Source: a virus
Lineage: Duplodnaviria > Heunggongvirae > Uroviricota > Caudoviricetes
DNA: 10,338 bases
IMG/VR virus record: IMGVR_UViG_2534681772_000012
Location: 1-10,338 of that record
Strand: one strand, 5' to 3'
Positions 652 to 10,338 of the stretch are shown piece after piece (the first letter of the stretch is position 1; every line of letters begins with the position of its first letter). Both the position numbers and the translations under genes were made by a program. The notes under the pieces are model-generated. The model did not search any database and was not told the DNA's origin. It saw only the letters and a program-made list of their open reading frames with translations.

Positions 652-1842
652 ATGAATACTGGATATTCTCCCGAACAAGGGCGGGGCTTCGTTCGTCCTG
701 AAAAACAGAATCTGCAAAATTTTGCCGAAATTATTCCGGTTATTTCCGGCCTTACTGGCGGGAGTGAAACCAATATTGTTAACGCCAGAGCGTTGCAGAT
801 GTTTGATGATAAAAAGGGAGTAAATTTAACTTACACCCCTGACGGCAATCAGAATATGAGCATTATCTCTGAGTCAGGTTTCTACAAACTAATAAAAACA
901 AAAAGCGCCCCGTTCCCGGAGCGCCTTTGTGAACAATTAACCTACTGCGCAAAAAATGAATCTGAGCAGTGGGATTATATCAACCGTGTGGCGAAGCGCC
1001 ACAATTGCCGGATAACAGGCAAAACAAAGGCCACCCGCTACGGTGGCCCCTCGACACAAGCTACACGTTATCCCCAACGCATGAGCATCACCAACAATGC
1101 CACATTTGCGGCTGGTGGGCAATGTGATCAGTCAGATTTGGTTCGTTCCAAGGTTTGCAACGAGAGCTTTTTCCTGTGCTCTTTAAGGAATTTCTCAAGA
1201 GCAAAAGCACATGGCGCGAATCTTTCTGATTCATGCTCTATCTTTCTGCGCCGTCTTTTCCGTGCCGGTGATAATGTTTTGGTCAATTCTTTATCGGTCA
1301 TTGTGTTGTCCTGCATAGCAATGCGCCGTAATACCTTACACCACGGCGCTGATGGTGATTACTCTGGTTCTTTGGTCTTGCGACGCTGGAGTTCTTCGCG
1401 TGCAACGGTGACAAGCTGCCCGATTTCTTCCGCTGCTTTGATGCCGATTTGTTCGACCTTAGCCAGGGCATCCAGTGACGACACAAGGGGATTTTCTCCG
1501 CTGCCTTCTGCTTGGCGGCGGGCTATTTCTCCGCGCATGGCGGTTACGATAAATCCGGCATTGCTTTCGCCGTCCAGCTTAACGGATTCCATCCCTTGCA
1601 TAACATCTAGTGGGACTCTGACAGTTGTCAGTTGTGATTTTGCGTTTTTGTTAGCCGTTGCCATTTCTGAAACTCCTAATCATCGGTGTGTTTCAGTATA
1701 CACAAAAAAAGAAATACAAAAAGCCTTGACGTGTGTTTCATGCGCTCATAACATGAAACACACCAAAAGAATTGTTGAAATACAAAGAGCAACGCCCCGC
1801 AGTGCCGGAAACACATACGGGGCGTCTAACCACCAACGATAG
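652..1842 (+). CDS. Questionable ORF; at most an N-terminal remnant (~652-900) of a disrupted gene, faintly Bro-N/Rha-like (IISESGFYKLI)
   Basis: ATG-to-stop ORF from the track. After ~aa 90 the translation is Ser/Cys/Arg-rich, as expected for an antisense read. It runs antisense to two protein-like minus-strand ORFs and through two minus-oriented terminator hairpins. No convincing RBS before ATG 652. Confidence 0.2.
   Translation: MNTGYSPEQGRGFVRPEKQNLQNFAEIIPVISGLTGGSETNIVNARALQMFDDKKGVNLTYTPDGNQNMSIISESGFYKLIKTKSAPFPERLCEQLTYCAKNESEQWDYINRVAKRHNCRITGKTKATRYGGPSTQATRYPQRMSITNNATFAAGGQCDQSDLVRSKVCNESFFLCSLRNFSRAKAHGANLSDSCSIFLRRLFRAGDNVLVNSLSVIVLSCIAMRRNTLHHGADGDYSGSLVLRRWSSSRATVTSCPISSAALMPICSTLARASSDDTRGFSPLPSAWRRAISPRMAVTINPALLSPSSLTDSIPCITSSGTLTVVSCDFAFLLAVAISETPNHRCVSVYTKKEIQKALTCVSCAHNMKHTKRIVEIQRATPRSAGNTYGASNHQR
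891..924 (-). terminator. Putative rho-independent terminator for minus-strand transcripts
   Basis: GC-rich imperfect hairpin 905-924 (GCGCCCC/GGAGCGC, one mismatch) followed on the minus strand by TTTTTGTTTTTATT (reverse complement of 891-904). Confidence 0.4.
1021..1048 (-). terminator. Putative rho-independent terminator for minus-strand transcripts
   Basis: Perfect 7-bp stem GGCCACC (1029-1035) / GGTGGCC (1042-1048) with a 6-nt loop, followed on the minus strand by TTTGTTTT (reverse complement of 1021-1028); about 80 nt downstream of the stop of minus ORF 1128..1301. Confidence 0.45.
1128..1301 (-). CDS. Small basic hypothetical protein (~57 aa, MTDKELTKTLSPARKRRRRK...)
   Basis: Minus ORF 1128..1316; the second in-frame ATG (1301) has a weak AGGA-like RBS. 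Lies just downstream of the RHH-like regulator and upstream of the minus-strand terminator. Composition is protein-like but there is no recognisable family. Confidence 0.3.
   Translation of the reverse strand: MTDKELTKTLSPARKRRRRKIEHESERFAPCAFALEKFLKEHRKKLSLQTLERTKSD
1359..1664 (-). CDS. Putative ribbon-helix-helix-like DNA-binding regulator (candidate repressor of the island), 101 aa
   Basis: Strong RBS AGGAG 8 nt upstream of ATG (minus 1677-1673). Balanced protein-like composition; N-terminal beta-strand-like TTVRVPLDV followed by helix-loop-helix (MQGMESVKLDGESNAGFIVTAMRGEIARRQ) resembles the RHH/Arc-MetJ fold. Divergent from the rightward operon promoter, the classic regulator position. 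Confidence 0.6.
   Translation of the reverse strand: MATANKNAKSQLTTVRVPLDVMQGMESVKLDGESNAGFIVTAMRGEIARRQAEGSGENPLVSSLDALAKVEQIGIKAAEEIGQLVTVAREELQRRKTKEPE
1686..1763. promoter_or_regulatory. Divergent promoter/operator region: sigma70-like promoter TTGACG (1726-1731) - 17 bp - TAACAT (1749-1754) for the rightward operon, overlapped by a perfect 12-bp inverted repeat GTGTGTTTCATG (1731-1742) / CATGAAACACAC (1752-1763); a third GTGTGTTTCA half-site at 1686-1695; leftward -10-like TATACT (complement of 1696-1701)
   Basis: Hexamers and repeats read directly from the sequence; assignment as operator for the adjacent regulator is inference. Confidence 0.5.
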
Positions 1843-1861: not shown

Positions 1862-2068
1862 ATGAGAAATCATACCATACACCCGCAAGGGCGGGACTCG
1901 CACAACCTGAATAAATACATCTGGCGTTTTATCGCCCTGAGTACGGCACAACCGCGCGTGATTACCATTGAGGCCACCAGCGAACAGGAAGCCCGTCAGC
2001 AATCACCGGCTGGCTGCGTGATGGTATTCGCCGCCCGTATTCGTCAGGGGGTGCACCATGTGCAATAA
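1862..2068 (+). CDS. Small protein, probably Icd-like (host cell division inhibitor Icd-like family of P4-type satellites)
   Basis: ATG 1862 with GAGG RBS; the track ORF uses an upstream TTG at 1772. Motif pattern YIWRF-ALS...EATSEQEAR...FAARIRQ matches my memory of Icd-like proteins. Stop overlaps the next start (ATGTGCAATAA). Confidence 0.5.
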   Translation: MRNHTIHPQGRDSHNLNKYIWRFIALSTAQPRVITIEATSEQEARQQSPAGCVMVFAARIRQGVHHVQ

Positions 2069-2525
2069 CACCCGTCCGGACGCAGCCGCCGAAGCAATCA
2101 AAACACTGATTGATGCGCTGATTGATATTTCTGTTATCGCGGACAGGGCGCATAAGCACGCTACCAGTGAAACAGAATATGCCGGGGCTTTCGTTCCTCA
2201 TTCGCTGGCGGTTATGCAACTTAGTGCGGATATGGCGCTGAATGAGGCCAAAGCCATCCTGATTGCTGATTGTGAAAATGGGGGGGGGGTTATGCGTGAT
2301 GATCGTTTTAATTCCCTGAAACAGGAATTTTCCGGCGTTCCTGATGATGCGGCTGATGCGCTTTCGTCAATGCCAGAGCTTATTAGAGCGGCTTTTTTCT
2401 TACTTTCCACGAGAGAATATAAATCAACGGGGCTTGATGTACTGAATATCGCCGCCGATTATGCGGAATATGTGGCAGAGGCGCGTTACAGAAGAAAATT
2501 TCCTGAGGATGTAAGCCATGCGTGA
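2058..2525 (+). CDS. Hypothetical protein (155 aa) containing an internal G10 homopolymer
   Basis: ATG 2058 preceded by AGGGGG RBS; translationally coupled to neighbours on both sides. No recognisable family. G10 run at 2280-2289 encodes GGG and is followed by an in-frame ATG at 2292. Confidence 0.55.
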   Translation: MCNNTRPDAAAEAIKTLIDALIDISVIADRAHKHATSETEYAGAFVPHSLAVMQLSADMALNEAKAILIADCENGGGVMRDDRFNSLKQEFSGVPDDAADALSSMPELIRAAFFLLSTREYKSTGLDVLNIAADYAEYVAEARYRRKFPEDVSHA

Positions 2526-2751
2526 TATTTACCACGAAACAATAGACCGCGCATTTCTTGCACTTTCTCACAGTGAAAACATGCTGGAAATATTGCGCAT
2601 ATGGCTTGAAACACTTGGCGACAATGAACGCGACAAACAAAAATCAAGAATTGCCACGGCATTAATAACGCTTCTTGAGCCTGTAATAATGGAACTGCAA
2701 GAAATAGATCTATTGCACGACAGATATAAAGAACAGCACACCGGAGAATAA
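2518..2751 (+). CDS. Hypothetical protein (77 aa)
   Basis: ATG 2518 overlaps the upstream stop by 8 nt; GAGGA RBS; protein-like composition; no recognisable family. Confidence 0.55.
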   Translation: MRDIYHETIDRAFLALSHSENMLEILRIWLETLGDNERDKQKSRIATALITLLEPVIMELQEIDLLHDRYKEQHTGE

Positions 2752-2756
2752 AAATA

Positions 2757-3056
2757 ATGAAACTTAAATATTCTGGCTTAACTGCCAGTGGCAACACTCA
2801 CCCTAAATTTACGCGCGGTGATATTTACCGCGACCAGTACGGCGGCACGGTAATGATTAAGGGCGTGGAAGAACGGCGCGTAATCTACCGCCGTGAAGGT
2901 TACGAATATGATTGCGTGATGCCTGTTTATCAGTTCCGGTGTGATTTTTCTCTGGTACAGACCGCGCCGCATAACGTGCCCACCAGCAACGCCAGGGCAC
3001 GGGCAAACATCCAGAAGCTGAAAACCATGATTAACGGATTCAGGGGCAAGAAATGA
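2757..3056 (+). CDS. Hypothetical protein (99 aa)
   Basis: ATG 2757 with GGAG RBS; stop overlaps the rep start (ATGA at 3053-3056); no recognisable family. Confidence 0.55.
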   Translation: MKLKYSGLTASGNTHPKFTRGDIYRDQYGGTVMIKGVEERRVIYRREGYEYDCVMPVYQFRCDFSLVQTAPHNVPTSNARARANIQKLKTMINGFRGKK

Positions 3057-4468
3057 AAAGCGCACCGAACTTAAAAAAACAGCCTTACGACAAAATGACC
3101 GAAGTCATTATTTTTGCGGGTAGTGATGCCTGGGCGCACGCGAAACAATGGCAGGAGCAGGACGGGCGACTTGCTGGCGACAATGTTCCGCCTGTATGGC
3201 TGGGAGACAGCCAGCTTGACGAACTGGCAGGCCTGAAAATTATCGACGATGGTCGCTATTGTGTCCGACTGTACAAGGCAGGCCACATCAAGCCGTCAAA
3301 TATTAATGCCATCGGGCAAAAGCTGGCGGCGGCAGGTGTACGGGATGCGAATTATTACCCTGAGGGAATGCACAGTCAGAAGCTGGAGAACTGGCACGAC
3401 TACCTGCAACGGATCCGCGAACAGGCAGAGCGCGGGGAAATACTTACTGACGAGCAATACAGCCAGCGAAAAACCACGCTACCAATGAGCATTGGATCTG
3501 CAGGGTACGACACACAGCTTGATTATGTCGTTAAGGGCGTGATTCCGGCTAATTCATTGTGCAGCACATACGGCGCGAGCGGTTCCTATAAATCGTTCCT
3601 CGCGTGTTCCTGGGCGTGTCATGTTGCCACGGGTCGCCACTGGGGAGGTCGCAGGGTGGCGCATGGTTCGGTGATGTATGTTGTCGGTGAAGGTGGCATT
3701 GGTGTCCCCCGCCGTATCAAGGCATGGGAAATCGTTAATGATGAACGGGTGAAAAATCTGTACCTGGTAAACCGCCCGATTTTTCCTGCAGCCCAGTTTG
3801 ATGTTGATGAAATGGTTATCGCATCCCGCCAGGTTGAACGGGAAACGGGTAAACCGGTACGCATGATTATTCTGGATACGCTGGCGCGTTGCTTTGGCGG
3901 TAATGATGAAAATGACGCGCGGGATATGGGGGCGTTTATCCGTGGATGTGACGAACTGAAACGACGCACAGGGGCCACGGTGCTGGTGGTTCACCATTCC
4001 GGCAAGGATGAAACAAAAGGGGCGCGTGGTTCCAGTGCATTTCGTGCATCTCTGGACGCTGAGTACCGGATCCGCCGCGAAGGCGCGGACAGTGAGGCCC
4101 TGGTTATCTCCTGCACCAAAATGAAGGACGCGGAGGAACTGAAAGAGGCTGCATATGATTTACGTGTGGTGGAGCTTTTTACCGACGCTGACAAGGAGTT
4201 AATCACGTCGCTGGTGGTTGTGGATAAGCCGCGCCCACCCGTTGAACTGGAGCGCATCGAGGAGGCCGGAAACAAGACGGAGAATCACGCCGCACTATGG
4301 GGCTGTATCCGGTCACGCACACAGCGCGGCGATAAATGCACTATCCCGTTGTTGCGCGATGATATGAAAAAGCTGGGGTATGAGATGAAAAACTTCCGGC
4401 GCTGGCTGTACAAGCTGGAAAGAGACGGCGTTATCGCTATTGACGGTGATGATGTGCGCCCACTGTAA
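3053..4468 (+). CDS. Replication initiator / RepA-like RecA-fold (AAA_25-type) ATPase, 471 aa; no primase domain recognised
   Basis: Walker A-like GASGSYKS and Walker B-like hydrophobic run ending in D (RMIILDTL) in the central region; RBS AGGGG; an iteron array follows the stop codon immediately, as in PICI/SaPI-type pri-rep/ori units. Confidence 0.8.
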   Translation: MKSAPNLKKQPYDKMTEVIIFAGSDAWAHAKQWQEQDGRLAGDNVPPVWLGDSQLDELAGLKIIDDGRYCVRLYKAGHIKPSNINAIGQKLAAAGVRDANYYPEGMHSQKLENWHDYLQRIREQAERGEILTDEQYSQRKTTLPMSIGSAGYDTQLDYVVKGVIPANSLCSTYGASGSYKSFLACSWACHVATGRHWGGRRVAHGSVMYVVGEGGIGVPRRIKAWEIVNDERVKNLYLVNRPIFPAAQFDVDEMVIASRQVERETGKPVRMIILDTLARCFGGNDENDARDMGAFIRGCDELKRRTGATVLVVHHSGKDETKGARGSSAFRASLDAEYRIRREGADSEALVISCTKMKDAEELKEAAYDLRVVELFTDADKELITSLVVVDKPRPPVELERIEEAGNKTENHAALWGCIRSRTQRGDKCTIPLLRDDMKKLGYEMKNFRRWLYKLERDGVIAIDGDDVRPL

Positions 4469-6607: not shown

Positions 6608-6850
6608 ATGGCTACTCATTACACTGAACTCATGTCTGGCACTGAAGCACTGGTTACTACGCTGGGGATATTTTCAGCCAATAAAGGGGTAATACCTGCG
6701 TTTACGCCACTGATGCAGGAAGATGCAACTGGTGCGCTAGTGGTATGGGATGGAACGAGCGCAGGCAAAGCGGTTTATGTTTCCGCTGTACAAATCGACA
6801 CTGAACCGCCCCGGGAATCCTGGAGACTAAACTCCCTGAGAAAGAGGTAA
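6608..6850 (+). pseudogene. Lambda gpD-like head decoration protein gene, 3'-truncated by IS629-like insertion
   Basis: RBS AGGGGGAG; TPLMQEDATGALVVWDGTSAGKAVYVSAV matches the lambda gpD region [29 protein letters not shown]. Homology ends at 6801, where the IS inverted repeat begins; the last ~16 codons of the ORF are IS-derived. Confidence 0.7.
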
Positions 6851-6855
6851 ACAGG

Positions 6856-7182
6856 ATGACTAAAAATACTCGTTTTTCCCCCGAAGTCCGTCAGAGGGCG
6901 ATTCGTATGGTTCTGGAAAGTCAGGGCGAATATGACTCACAGTGGGCGGCAATTTGTTCCATTGCCCCAAAGATTGACTGTACACCGGAGACTCTGCGTG
7001 TCTGGGTACGCCAGCATGAGCGGGATACCGGAGGCGGTGATGGCGGGCTCACCACCGCTGAACGTCAGCGTCTGAAAGAGCTGGAACGTGAAAATCGTGA
7101 ACTGCGCCGCAGTAACGATATCCTTCGCCAGGCTTCCGCTTATTTTGCGAAGGCGGAGTTCGACCGCCTCTGGAAAAAGTGA
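6856..7182 (+). CDS. IS3-family transposase OrfA (HTH/leucine-zipper part), IS629-like
   Basis: 108 aa, [30 protein letters not shown]...[36 protein letters not shown]; ends at the frameshift window. Confidence 0.9.
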
Positions 7183-8069
7183 TGCCACTGCTGGATAAGC
7201 TGCGTAAGCTGTACGGGGTCGGACCGGTATGCAGTGAACTACATATTGCCCCGTCAACGTATTACCACTGTCAGCAACAGCGACATCATCCTGATAAACG
7301 CAGTGCCCGTGCGCAGCGCGATGACTGGCTGAAGAAAGAGATACTGCGCGTATACGATGGGAATCATCAGGTATACGGTGTGCGTAAAGTCTGGCGTCAG
7401 TTGTTACGGGAAGGAATCAGGGTAGCCAGATGTACAGTGGCGCGCCTCATGGCGGTTATGGGACTTGCCGGTGTTCTCCGGGGTAAAAAGGTCCGCACTA
7501 CCGTCAGCCGGAAAGCCGTTGCCGCAGGCGACCGCGTAAACCGTCAGTTTGTGGCAGAACGTCCTGACCAGTTGTGGGTGGCTGATTTTACTTACGTCAG
7601 CACATGGCAGGGGGTCGTCTATGTGGCGTTCATCATTGATGTGTTTGCCGGATACATCGTGGGGTGGCGGGTCTCATCGTCTATGGAAACGACATTCGTG
7701 CTGGATGCTCTGGAGCAGGCGTTATGGGCCCGTCGACCGTCCGGCACAGTCCATCACAGTGATAAAGGTTCTCAGTATGTATCGCTGGCCTACACACAGC
7801 GGCTTAAGGAAGCCGGATTACTGGCATCAACAGGAAGTACTGGTGACTCGTATGACAACGCGATGGCGGAGAGCATCAATGGCCTTTACAAAGCGGAGGT
7901 AATACACCGTAAGAGCTGGAAAAACCGGACAGAAGTGGAACTGGCCACACTCACGTGGGTGGACTGGTATAACAATCGACGATTGCTGGAAAGGCTGGGC
8001 CATATCCCACCGGCAGAAGCAGAAAAAGCTTATTATGCTTCCATCGGAAACGATGATCTGGCAGCCTGA
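7179..8069 (+). CDS. IS3-family transposase OrfB (DDE catalytic domain), IS629-like; expressed as OrfAB fusion by -1 frameshift
   Basis: 296 aa with DDE-type motifs ([31 protein letters not shown]); overlaps orfA in the -1 frame. Confidence 0.9.
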
Positions 8070-8123: not shown

Positions 8124-9698
8124 TCATCGCACACCGCCTTTTTCCTGATGAAAGCGGCAACGAGCAATCACGGATTGAATTTCAAATTGTGTGGTTTCAT
8201 GGATTGAAATAAGTGGATTGCGGGCGTTACCAACACTGTCTGAAATGGAAATCAATTCATCGACTTCTTTAACTACACTCTCCAGCACCGCCTGATGGTC
8301 ACCATCAGTAAAGGGGCGGAAATACAGGCAACCGTAGCAGCAGCGTACTTCACTGAATGGGCATTTGCCATCATCTCTGGAGCAACCGCCAATCCCATCA
8401 TGCAACTCATCACCGATTATGCCGACCACGCGCTGGTCTTGCCATTTCGTTGAAGAGGTCAGTTCACCAGTCAACATCATAGCCACCATGTTTTGCCATA
8501 CCGGATTGATACCCAATGCTTTGGCTCGAATCAGTGCCAGTGCAGGCGTCGCCAGAATGTAATACTTGGCAACAGTAAGGGAGCTATGTCCCAGAATATG
8601 CGCAATTTCCTCGGCGCTGACCCCTTGCATAGCCAGTGAATGCCCCACGTTGTGGCGCAAGTCGGTCGGGGTAATGGTTGGCAAAGCCGCTTCGCCACGC
8701 TTTACGGCTGCCTGATAATCTGGCGGACTGAAACAGAGGAAGGCCTTGTTAATCGCTCTGGACACATTAAACGGTGCAGAGTTACTAAATTCAAATAGCT
8801 TGCCATCAGGTTTTAGTTGCGCTCGCTCGATATAGTGCCTAATCAACGCGCCGATTTCAGCTGGAATCGCCAAAAACAGACGTTCAGTCGTTACGTGCCG
8901 CTGTTTGGCGTAAGGAAGGAGTAAGCTATATCGTATTAATCCGGTTTCGGAGTTTCGGGTATCAATACGTAAATCTTTTACCGCCAGCTTGGCCAGTTGT
9001 ACCGGTCGGGCACCGGTGACATACGTCAGTCCCAGAATTACTGCATCTCGCATGGTGTTCAGACTGTAGTTTTCGCCATACCGAATCGCCACAGCCATTT
9101 CAAACAAGCCTTTACTGATCATGTTTTTTTCGAGGGGATCCAGAACATGATCAATTTCCTGATAGATTCCCCAGTCATGGGAGTGCGGGCGAGGGATGAA
9201 TTCGAGGTCTTCATAATCTTCGAGGGTAAAACCAGGGAATGCTTCGGTACAGAGGATTTTTAGGCCGAAAATGATAAAGTAGAAATATTGAGGTTTAATT
9301 TCCTGAGTTTCGAGGTAATCTTTCAACACCGTAAAAGTGAAAGCAGATTTGCTTATGCAATGATCAGTTGCCAAAGACCACGCATGGAGTACCCCAGGAA
9401 CCTGAGCTGGACACTTGGCAGATGCATAATGGAAGCAAATATATTTGATTAATTGGTTGCTGATTTTATCCTGACGAAAGTGGGCATAGCAGCGGCTTCC
9501 TGAATAATCGAATACCCAACTGTCACTTGTTGAGCTGATATATTTGTCATCAAAATGATCTGCCGATTTAAGATAAATACTAACTGGTATATTAACCTTT
9601 AAAATACTCTCAACAAATACAGGTGTGTAAATGTTGCTGTTCGACGCATTTAACTGTTTATTGATTCGACTCATATGCACTCCATTCATCGCATACAT
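8124..9698 (-). CDS. Tyrosine recombinase / phage-integrase-family protein, large (516-524 aa) with Cys-rich C-terminal region
   Basis: Catalytic-motif pattern in the central part: GARPVQLAKL (Arg box), DLRHNVGHSLAM (H-x-x-R), LGHSSLTVAKYYI (His/Tyr nucleophile box). The best RBS (GGAG) precedes the third in-frame ATG at 9674, so the true start may be 9674. Stop is 12 bp from the IS629 end. Confidence 0.75.
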   Translation of the reverse strand: MYAMNGVHMSRINKQLNASNSNIYTPVFVESILKVNIPVSIYLKSADHFDDKYISSTSDSWVFDYSGSRCYAHFRQDKISNQLIKYICFHYASAKCPAQVPGVLHAWSLATDHCISKSAFTFTVLKDYLETQEIKPQYFYFIIFGLKILCTEAFPGFTLEDYEDLEFIPRPHSHDWGIYQEIDHVLDPLEKNMISKGLFEMAVAIRYGENYSLNTMRDAVILGLTYVTGARPVQLAKLAVKDLRIDTRNSETGLIRYSLLLPYAKQRHVTTERLFLAIPAEIGALIRHYIERAQLKPDGKLFEFSNSAPFNVSRAINKAFLCFSPPDYQAAVKRGEAALPTITPTDLRHNVGHSLAMQGVSAEEIAHILGHSSLTVAKYYILATPALALIRAKALGINPVWQNMVAMMLTGELTSSTKWQDQRVVGIIGDELHDGIGGCSRDDGKCPFSEVRCCYGCLYFRPFTDGDHQAVLESVVKEVDELISISDSVGNARNPLISIHETTQFEIQSVIARCRFHQEKGGVR

Positions 9699-10085
9699 GG
9701 GAAAAGGTTGATTTCAGGGCTTCGTTATCAATCACAATTCGCTGAAGATTGGCCGTATTAGCCTGCTGAGATAGAAATCTTTTAGCGTAAAGATCAGGCA
9801 TATGGCTATTGTGACTCCAACCGCCAAGTAGCCGTAATTCATCCTTGGCTTCATCCATCAATCCAACGATAGAAAAGTCTATGGCTGCCAAGTGTGAGTT
9901 GGCCTTAATTTTTTGAAGTTTATCACGATAAATACGTTGAAGTGTTAAATAAGCCCAAGTATGCCGCGTTATATGAGGCGAGATGCTTTCAATGGCATCA
10001 TAATATTCATCTTTTTTATATTCAGGATACTGCACACTCATAATGTCATCAATACGGGTAAAGATATCATAGACTGCATGGTATG
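9658..10085 (-). pseudogene. C-terminal catalytic fragment of a second tyrosine recombinase, 5'-truncated by IS2
   Basis: PHITRHTWAYLTL (H-x-x-R box) and LLGGWSHNSHMPDLYAKRF (His...Tyr box) present; N-terminal domains absent. The first ~9 codons of track ORF 9658..10113 (MSGDSGGQS) are encoded by the IS2 terminal repeat. Its 3' end overlaps the start of the downstream recombinase. Confidence 0.65.
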
Positions 10086-10338
10086 TAGACTGGCCCCCTG
10101 AATCTCCAGACAACCAATATCACTTAAATAAGTGATAGTCTTAATACTAGTTTTTAGACTAGTCATTGGAGAGCAGATGATTGATGTCTTAGGACCGGAG
10201 AAACGCAGACGGCGTACTACACAGGAAAAGATCGCTATTGTTCAGCAGAGTTTTGAACCGGGAATGACGGTCTCCCTTGTTGCCCGGCAACACGGTGTGG
10301 CAGCCAGCCAGTTATTTCTCTGGCGCAAGCAATACCAG
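10086..10338 (+). mobile_element. IS2 (IS3 family) left end, partial; continues beyond the window
   Basis: TAGACTGGCCCCCTGAATCTCCAGACAACCAATATCACTTAAATAAGTGATAGTC... matches my memory of the IS2 terminal repeat and leader; followed by the IS2 orfA start. Confidence 0.85.
10177..10338 (+). CDS. insC: IS2 transposase OrfA (InsC-like), 5' partial at window edge
   Basis: ATG 10177; translation [54 protein letters not shown]... matches IS2 OrfA as I recall it; ORF open to the window end. Confidence 0.8.

Follow-up and report, generated by a model that had tools for sequence, protein, structure and literature searches.

The stretch of DNA analyzed here (hereafter the window) covers the 10,338 nucleotides of IMG/VR virus record IMGVR_UViG_2534681772_000012. 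Pfam and NCBIfam matches, together with a comparison with relatives, identify the window as a member of the EcCICFT073 type of phage-inducible chromosomal islands (PICIs) by both gene order and chromosomal integration. The genes are arranged as int, alpA, ylcI divergent from an icd-like gene, repA, ssb, and capsid genes, and the window is homologous to the CFT073 island itself. The segment 1100-2600 shares 99.9% identity with Escherichia coli TW10590, in which the island lies between abgR and smrA and has its own integrase and attachment flanks. Among complete E. coli genomes, 1,819 of 5,426 match some part of this 1.5-kb region. This work concerns a set of short repeats in the 197-bp intergenic region between two divergent genes, together with the protein that may bind them. 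On the left is the ylcI-like gene (1359-1664, minus strand), which encodes 101 amino acids (aa) and is preceded by an AGGAG ribosome-binding sequence at 1677-1673. On the right is the icd-like leader gene (1862-2068, plus strand; NCBIfam NF033153, 69.8 bits), which is the first open reading frame (ORF) of the rightward operon.

Repeats and Promoters in the Intergenic Region

The initial annotation of this DNA described a perfect 12-bp inverted repeat around the -10 element of a rightward promoter, with a third half-site upstream, and regarded these as a repressor operator for both divergent promoters. The repeat and its location proved accurate. By inspection of the sequence and a repeat search, GTGTGTTTCATG (1731-1742) and its exact reverse complement CATGAAACACAC (1752-1763) are separated by 9 nt and bracket the -10 of a TTGACG-17-TAACAT promoter. 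The third copy, GTGTGTTTCA (1686-1695), adjoins a leftward TATACT (AGTATA at 1695-1700 on the plus strand). This 10-mer is found exactly three times, at 1686-1695 (plus), 1731-1740 (plus), and 1754-1763 (minus), and no further exact copy exists across the 10.3-kb window. A non-homopolymeric 9-mer was present at least three times in the 197-bp intergenic region in 46 of 50,000 first-order Markov simulations; this homopolymer filter was introduced after an earlier unfiltered test (259 of 20,000, p ~0.013) that was inflated by poly-A words. Relatives do not keep the TG/CA extension to 12 bp, and the conserved unit is therefore 9-10 bp, namely, (G)TGTGTTTCA.

Five sites of this unit can be recognized. 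O1 (TGTGTTTCA, no mismatch; 1687-1695, plus) is located directly 3' of the leftward -10 and over the predicted start of the leftward promoter P_L, at register 23 in all classes of related loci (register being the position counted from the ylcI ATG). Ox (AGAAATACA, two mismatches; 1710-1718, minus) is degenerate, inverted relative to O1, and situated between the two promoters. O2 (TGTGTTTCA, no mismatch; 1732-1740, plus) is at the start of the spacer of the rightward promoter P_R, right after the -35. O3 (TGAAACACA, the reverse complement of TGTGTTTCA, no mismatch; 1754-1762, minus) extends over both the final -10 base and the predicted start of P_R. O4 (TGAAATACA, one mismatch; 1776-1784, minus) is 22 bp past O3. 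The five sites are in phase, with a spacing of 22-23 bp that places all of them on one helix face. The assignment of an operator to both divergent promoters holds up, given its fixed position in 111 non-redundant loci and the conservation of the sites amid diverged flanks, but the anatomy is that of five phased 9-bp sites rather than a 12-bp palindrome with a half-site.

According to a sigma-70-like promoter scan, P_R has the -35 hexamer TTGACG (1726-1731, plus) and, after a 17-nt spacer, the -10 hexamer TAACAT (1749-1754, plus). This is the sole such match within 1100-2300, and its predicted start is at ~1761. The P_L -10 for ylcI, TATACT (1695-1700, minus), was read from the sequence, and the predicted start of P_L is at ~1688. 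A TAnnnT hexamer near the register of this -10 was seen by eye in the sequences of every class examined. O2 and O3 bracket the P_R -10, while O1 and Ox bracket the P_L -10. With respect to these predicted promoters, the sites overlap core elements and starts as repressor operators do: O2 abuts the -35 and O3 covers the -10 and start of P_R, and O1 abuts the -10 of P_L.

Conservation Among Related Loci

We gathered 182 related loci (given L numbers below) from genomes, viral contigs, and metagenomes. Among these, 164 have the ylcI gene and its upstream region, and 111 are non-redundant. Conservation of the half-site in homologous islands had been proposed as a check, and in the 111 non-redundant loci we found the same architecture in fixed register: up to five sites at registers 23, 45/46, 68, 90, and 112 in every class. 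A -35 of the form TTGNNN is located at register 60-65 (mostly 62) in 110 of these 111 loci. Most classes have TAnnnT at the -10 register, whereas the SLTA and LKNI/VKNV classes have TAAAGT two bases off (as read from printed 10-mers, not counted). At the Ox register, the site is perfect in L009 and L017, and the SLTA, MTTI, and QINA classes have good ones. At the O4 register, a perfect site was found in L009, and sites are present in the MTTI, QLNA, and QINA classes.

The Scandinavium island L009 has five near-perfect copies of the window's site at the same places. The YlcI proteins of the window and L009 are identical at 56 of 105 positions and have the same DNA-facing residues, and their DNA is identical at 37 of 45 site positions compared to 22 of 55 positions elsewhere (Fisher p = 1.8e-5). 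A similar footprint was found between L017 and L011, with 51 of 105 identical residues between proteins and 39 of 45 identical site positions compared to 27 of 49 (p = 0.0013). These two footprints, both derived from sequence comparison, argue for selection on the sites beyond linkage. The layout of the sites varies with the form of the protein. Short YlcI forms (59-61 aa; CFT073 and L013), which do not have the C-terminal helix described below, are found with three sites in direct orientation, and long forms are found with up to five sites in mostly alternating orientation. Direct-repeat layouts are present in CFT073, L012, and L013, which excludes a role of the sites as an RNA or DNA hairpin.

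The YlcI Protein and Its Covariation With the Operator

The 101-aa protein belongs to the family YlcI_YnfO_N (NCBIfam NF041551; residues 9-50, 63.2 bits against a curated cutoff of 30), and the identical RefSeq protein WP_000179579.1 is annotated as YlcI/YnfO family. A Pfam scan of the protein yielded no family over threshold; a sub-threshold match to PSK_trans_fac was found in 9 of 15 YlcI members (best E 0.0011). In the AlphaFold2 model, an extended segment (~7-17) is followed by helices at 19-28 and 35-54 and by a long C-terminal helix at 61-98, with a predicted local distance difference test score (pLDDT) of 84-92 over residues 11-50. The N-terminal part (~residues 1-55) has the strand-helix-helix topology, ~45 residues in length, of a ribbon-helix-helix (RHH) domain. 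When the whole model was used in fold searches, the long helix dominated the matches; the modeled N-terminal domain returned Arc, omega, and other RHH proteins among the best matches. At the sequence level, hhalign placed YlcI 9-31 on Arc 6-28 with weak significance (P = 0.007), in a register that sets YlcI residues 12/14/16 opposite the base-contacting Arc Q9/N11/R13; PDB sequence and profile searches with YlcI returned no RHH protein. YlcI may thus be regarded as an RHH protein by its modeled fold, with a weak register match to Arc by sequence. The only match from these PDB searches was a weak one (E 0.03) between residues 47-88 (~1401-1526, minus) and the helix-hairpin-helix motif of Hef (...LAKVExIGxKAAEEI...), where AlphaFold2 instead predicts one continuous helix with pLDDT >90.

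Between lineages, the operator 9-mer changes in concert at all positions. When the YlcI strand sequences are placed in the Arc register, the residues at positions 12/14 can be listed for each operator: L/T with TGTGTTTCA, M/T with TGTATATCA, S/T with TGTAAGNCA, Q/N with TGG(T/G)ATTCA, M, L, or V/N with GTGTGTA(C/T), A/K with TGGGCCACA (CFT073), and K/Q with TGGA(A/G)TCCA. Classes with common residues 12/14/16 have a common operator. We clustered the operator DNA of the 111 non-redundant loci blind to the proteins and then compared the clusters with the protein classes. The agreement with the YlcI beta-strand motif was perfect by adjusted Rand index (ARI 1.00) and nearly so by adjusted mutual information (AMI 0.99), compared to ARI values of 0.20 for AlpA, 0.06 for the Icd-like gene, and 0.05 for the C-terminal half of YlcI. 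The initial annotation had implicated the 101-aa minus-strand protein as the master repressor of the island, and, as far as a regulator acting at these sites is concerned, this covariation in sequence points to the same protein, or more precisely to its beta-strand. Among 61 distinct proteins, the column with the highest AMI with operator class is residue 12 (0.84), followed by residues 15, 13, 5, 17, and 35, while columns in the C-terminal half have values of at most 0.31.

The association stops inside ylcI at about residue 50 and, on the other side, at the leader hairpin and icd, such that the co-inherited block is ~300 bp. The only coding sequence inside this block is the RHH domain. The comparison between L003-L181 and the window indicates that the RHH domain and operators recombine as a cassette, whose junctions are in the leader hairpin and close to YlcI residue 50. 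One and the same cassette occurs alongside differing integrases, AlpA types, Icd types, and primases (RepA/AAA_25, D5_N/DUF5906, and DUF927).

A Minus-Strand Hairpin and a Predicted Antisense RNA

The P_R leader contains a conserved hairpin at 1792-1825, which strand-specific folding assigned to the minus strand, followed by a tail at 1791-1780 that is only moderately U-rich. On the plus strand the hairpin has no G.U pairs, and 12 of the 14 non-standard combinations are A.C, which correspond to G.U on the minus strand. All 32 variants fold more stably as the minus strand (mean -23.8 vs. -17.5 kcal/mol), and the consensus energy is -26.5 for the minus strand and -17.0 for the plus strand. Pairing is found in 97% of the cells overall and 99% in the main helix, a level reached by none of 500 shuffles and compared to 37-46% in slid controls. 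A plus-strand leader RNA similar to c4 of phage P1 was considered and rejected, based on the A.C nature of the non-canonical plus-strand pairs. Rfam scans found only the pseudoknot of an IS3 element (see below), with no match to C4 or IsrK at E <= 1 in the whole window or at E <= 10 in 1740-1880.

Upstream of the hairpin on the minus strand, TGGTATGAT (1869-1877) is a candidate extended -10, with a predicted antisense start at ~1862. The minus-strand TAnnnT is kept even though the Icd N-terminal families differ in the amino acids encoded there, the TG is present in some families, and in some relatives the -10 is a perfect TGGTATAAT. The predicted antisense RNA of ~80 nt (~1862 to 1783) has a folding energy of -34.4 kcal/mol (z = -4.05) and would overlie both the Shine-Dalgarno sequence and the AUG of the icd-like gene. 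Judging from these sequence features, the hairpin looks like the terminator of a cis-antisense RNA over the icd-like ribosome-binding site.

A Putative Repressor Switch

We propose that the region 1686-1784 is the operator array of a PICI switch, which is bound by the RHH repressor YlcI and silences the replication operon, and we estimate a probability of about 0.72 for this reading. The combination of operators and an RHH repressor is well supported by the sequence comparisons. Under the proposed mechanism, a YlcI dimer would bind each 9-bp site TGTGTTTCA, with its beta-strand (residues 12-17, of which 12, 14, and 16 would face the DNA) reading the bases. Dimers would occupy one DNA face at sites two helical turns apart, and the association with site layout suggests that the long C-terminal helix probably links them into tetramers across inverted pairs. 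Judging by their positions, O2 (within the spacer) and O3 (across the -10 and start) would exclude RNA polymerase from P_R and keep the icd-like/repA replication operon silent, while O1 and the weak Ox may act likewise at P_L and result in autoregulation of ylcI. Two further steps are speculative, namely, derepression via helper-induced, AlpA-activated transcription from upstream and a second layer of silencing by the predicted antisense RNA, which would cover the ribosome-binding site of the icd-like gene.

Several points weigh against this proposal. Searches of the literature turned up no measurements of binding, footprints, reporter activity, or transcription starts for YlcI or P_R. P_L has no recognizable -35. 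The RHH-coding segment is only 22 bp from O1, such that the perfect association is partly expected from physical linkage in a recombining module. Site orientation differs between close classes (inverted in LTTV and direct in MTTI), which a simple model of a tetramer on a palindrome leaves unexplained. Furthermore, the key regulator described for these islands is AlpA, an activator, and a global repressor in Gram-negative PICIs was considered "unclear" (PMC6092414). The window contains no sites beyond those of the array, and the role of master repressor that the initial annotation gave to YlcI is not supported in that form; any such island-wide role must be reconciled with this activator.

The alpA gene (411-599, plus; Pfam Phage_AlpA and annotation) has the same direction as P_R and is convergent with ylcI. 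AlpA is the only regulator published for these islands; it activates island expression and is needed for EcCICFT073 induction, and alpA itself is induced by helpers (PMC6092414). For the AlpA-dependent reporter pJP1290 (PMC6092414 supplement), we found that the reverse primer matches 1066-1085 of the window exactly, upstream of ylcI. The forward primer matches 4914-4934 of L001, ~400 bp upstream of alpA, and has no match in the window. Because the published reporters end at 1085, P_R and ylcI are outside the published AlpA assays, and the published activation data report plus-strand transcription downstream of alpA. If the pJP1290 signal starts at the alpA promoter, there is plus-strand read-through from alpA to at least 1085. 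The leftward ylcI transcript has an intrinsic terminator at 1026-1051 (minus; 10-pair stem and T run) and a second strong one at 901-928 (minus; 12-pair stem and T run), and no plus-strand terminator comparable to these two was found in the alpA-ylcI interval. As a speculation, given that alpA points toward ylcI and runs in the same direction as the operon, read-through driven by AlpA could both hinder ylcI and feed the operon.

In the literature searched, we found no description of a YlcI/operator switch. As a tentative proposal, which we consider possible but would not put as high as an even chance, Gram-negative PICIs may have the "missing" repressor after all, in the form of a modular immunity-like cassette composed of the YlcI RHH domain, phased operators, and an antisense RNA over the icd-like start. 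This cassette, of which there would be at least seven classes with different specificities, would be shuffled between islands by recombination and would keep the replication operon silent until overridden by helper-induced, AlpA-driven transcription convergent with ylcI. If this is true, the cassette would define immunity or incompatibility groups among co-resident satellites.

Alternative Explanations

The operators could be real and yet have another reader, such as a factor of the host, a protein of the helper phage, or a different product of the island, with YlcI merely linked to them. The YlcI-operator association could then reflect co-inheritance of the 300-bp block, but the bounds of this block, near YlcI residue 50 and at the leader hairpin and icd, leave the RHH domain as all that is coded inside. 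At least seven operator specificities coexist in one species, and a protein from the host or a phage would be unable to follow them. Moreover, the residues that are most informative about operator class are those of the beta-strand and the N-terminal arm, as RHH recognition predicts. A tblastn search of YlcI against 50,697 phage records found no match, and a helper-encoded paralogue is thus not supported. For these reasons we consider another reader unlikely. The involvement of AlpA, by binding the repeats and turning on the rightward operon from there, is even harder to sustain and in our view very improbable. AlpA is indeed a DNA-binding regulator that activates island genes and is required for induction of EcCICFT073 (PMC6092414), and its gene is 1.1 kb upstream in the same element. 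However, operator class is nearly independent of AlpA type. AlpA proteins that share the C-terminal 58 residues of the window's AlpA are found with three different operators, TGTGTTTCA, TGTAAG, and GTGTGTAC (in the window, L144, and L168, respectively), and conversely the window's operator is found with nine AlpA clusters. Site positions at the spacer, -10, and start suit a repressor rather than an activator, and the segment in the published AlpA reporters does not include the operator region. AlpA as the binder was accordingly rejected on covariation.

A toxin-antitoxin arrangement would make YlcI an antitoxin that uses the repeats for autoregulation only, and a variant of this idea would make it an activator of P_R. 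RHH antitoxins have an N-terminal RHH domain and a C-terminal partner-binding region, the weak PSK_trans_fac matches point in this direction, and a possible partner exists in a basic 62-aa ORF from the ORF list (1128-1316, minus), which is 3' of ylcI and co-transcribed with it. This ORF is optional, however, with a homologue in 92 of the 164 loci and none in the other 72, both states being found within single operator classes, and this makes the toxin-antitoxin reading unlikely. In addition, the best-conserved sites, O2 and O3, are on the promoter of the divergent operon rather than that of ylcI, and the 59-aa forms retain sites yet have no C-terminal partner domain. An antitoxin or activator role for YlcI therefore appears quite improbable. 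Chance or a nucleic-acid hairpin (an RNA element or cruciform) is hardly credible as the origin of the repeats. The region is A/T-rich and repetitive, which is reflected in the p-value of the unfiltered Markov test, and O2/O3 form a perfect inverted repeat, but the result of the filtered test and the same register in 111 loci of many genera are not expected by chance. Several classes have direct repeats that are unable to pair. The inverted repeat in the window is upstream of the predicted start except for the start-site end of O3, so that no complete hairpin would be transcribed from P_R. Binding of the array by YlcI as a repressor remains the reading that we prefer.

Other Features of the Island

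The rightward operon continues from the icd-like gene through small overlapping ORFs and a DUF4222 gene to repA, which encodes a RepA/AAA_25 helicase (3053-4468, plus; Pfam/NCBIfam matches). Further genes include those for ssb, a major capsid protein, and a head-decoration protein. Within 1862-4468, ORFs share 11 nt at 2058/2068, 8 nt at 2518/2525, and 4 nt at 3053/3056, which suggests translational coupling from the icd-like leader ORF to repA. A poly-G tract at 2280-2289 has 10 G in the window, 11 G in TW10590, and 7-11 G among related loci, and its length sets the fusion of ORFs 2058-2300 and 2293-2525 into one ORF of 155 aa. These length differences could be due to slipped-strand variation or sequencing error.

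A plus-strand open frame of 396 aa (652-1842) lies opposite both ylcI and the 62-aa ORF and extends through the operator region. RefSeq relatives carry no annotation for this frame, which probably represents a shadow ORF. Farther to the right, an IS3 copy (6608-8069) interrupts the head-decoration gene of the island, with 80 aa left compared to 113 aa in TW10590. This copy contains orfA (6856-7182), orfB (7179-8069), and the ALIL frameshift pseudoknot (7137-7253; 116 bits). Beyond IS3, the region 8124-10113 (minus) has an ORF of 524 aa and an overlapping ORF of 151 aa. Judging from its own sequence, the 524-aa product is taken to be a tyrosine recombinase. These two ORFs are unrelated to the island integrase and may be part of another inserted element.

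Comparison With Known Systems

Virulence and defense genes are carried from one enterobacterium to another by phage-inducible chromosomal islands. Both the quiescence and the helper specificity of Gram-positive islands are accounted for by the Stl repressor. Our finding gives a testable candidate for the undescribed repressor of Gram-negative PICIs, consisting of a small RHH protein, its operators, and its promoter targets, together with a natural series of matched YlcI/operator specificity variants. These beta-strand/operator pairs may serve as ready orthogonal repressor-operator parts and as a small natural data set for the rules of RHH recognition.

Stl proteins are larger helix-turn-helix repressors, unlike YlcI in fold. 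Nevertheless, Stl/Rpr of the Staphylococcus aureus pathogenicity islands (SaPIs) are found at the same place of the island, divergent from the excision/replication operon and next to int (PMC6092414). They also resemble YlcI in the presumed role of keeping the island quiescent. Repression by Stl is lifted by complex formation with a specific helper-phage protein (PMC6092414), whereas no partner is known for YlcI and Gram-negative islands use the activator AlpA. The omega protein of the inc18 plasmid pSM19035 is similar in that an RHH dimer reads a short non-palindromic unit, which is direct or inverted, variable in number, and present at several promoters. However, omega heptads are contiguous rather than two helical turns apart as in the island, and there is no sequence relationship. 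The immI regions of P1/P7 (c4 RNA-icd-ant) and the CI RNA of P4 also have an Icd-like leader ORF at the head of the operon with a structured RNA region before it, and operon expression depends on access to the icd translation start. However, c4 and CI are made by processing of the leader and have its sense, whereas the structure in the island belongs to the other strand.

By analogy, the island system would work most like immI of phage P22 (Arc/Mnt and sar RNA) and CopG with RNA II of plasmid pMV158. P22 immI has small RHH repressors with operators that overlap back-to-back divergent promoters. Mnt combines an RHH domain with a C-terminal helical tetramerization domain, as the 101-aa YlcI may do, and Arc (53 aa) resembles the 59-aa short form of CFT073. 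In P22, the first regulated gene has its ribosome-binding site covered by the antisense RNA sar; the counterpart in the island is a prediction. The two systems differ in that no significant sequence similarity was found, P22 has two repressor genes and the island one, a P22 operator is a single element of 17-21 bp rather than five sites phased at 22-23 bp, and the regulated operon leads to an antirepressor in P22 and to satellite replication functions in the island. The likeness to pMV158 lies in an RHH repressor at a core promoter combined with a countertranscript, RNA II, which ends in an intrinsic terminator and masks a translation start upstream of replication initiator genes. On the other hand, copG and repB are on one transcript, in contrast to the divergent arrangement of ylcI, and CopG binds one pseudosymmetric element; here again the island antisense RNA is only predicted. 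The kind of system is well known, and what appears to be new, on the evidence of sequence comparison, is a candidate repressor of Gram-negative PICIs and its set of matched specificities.

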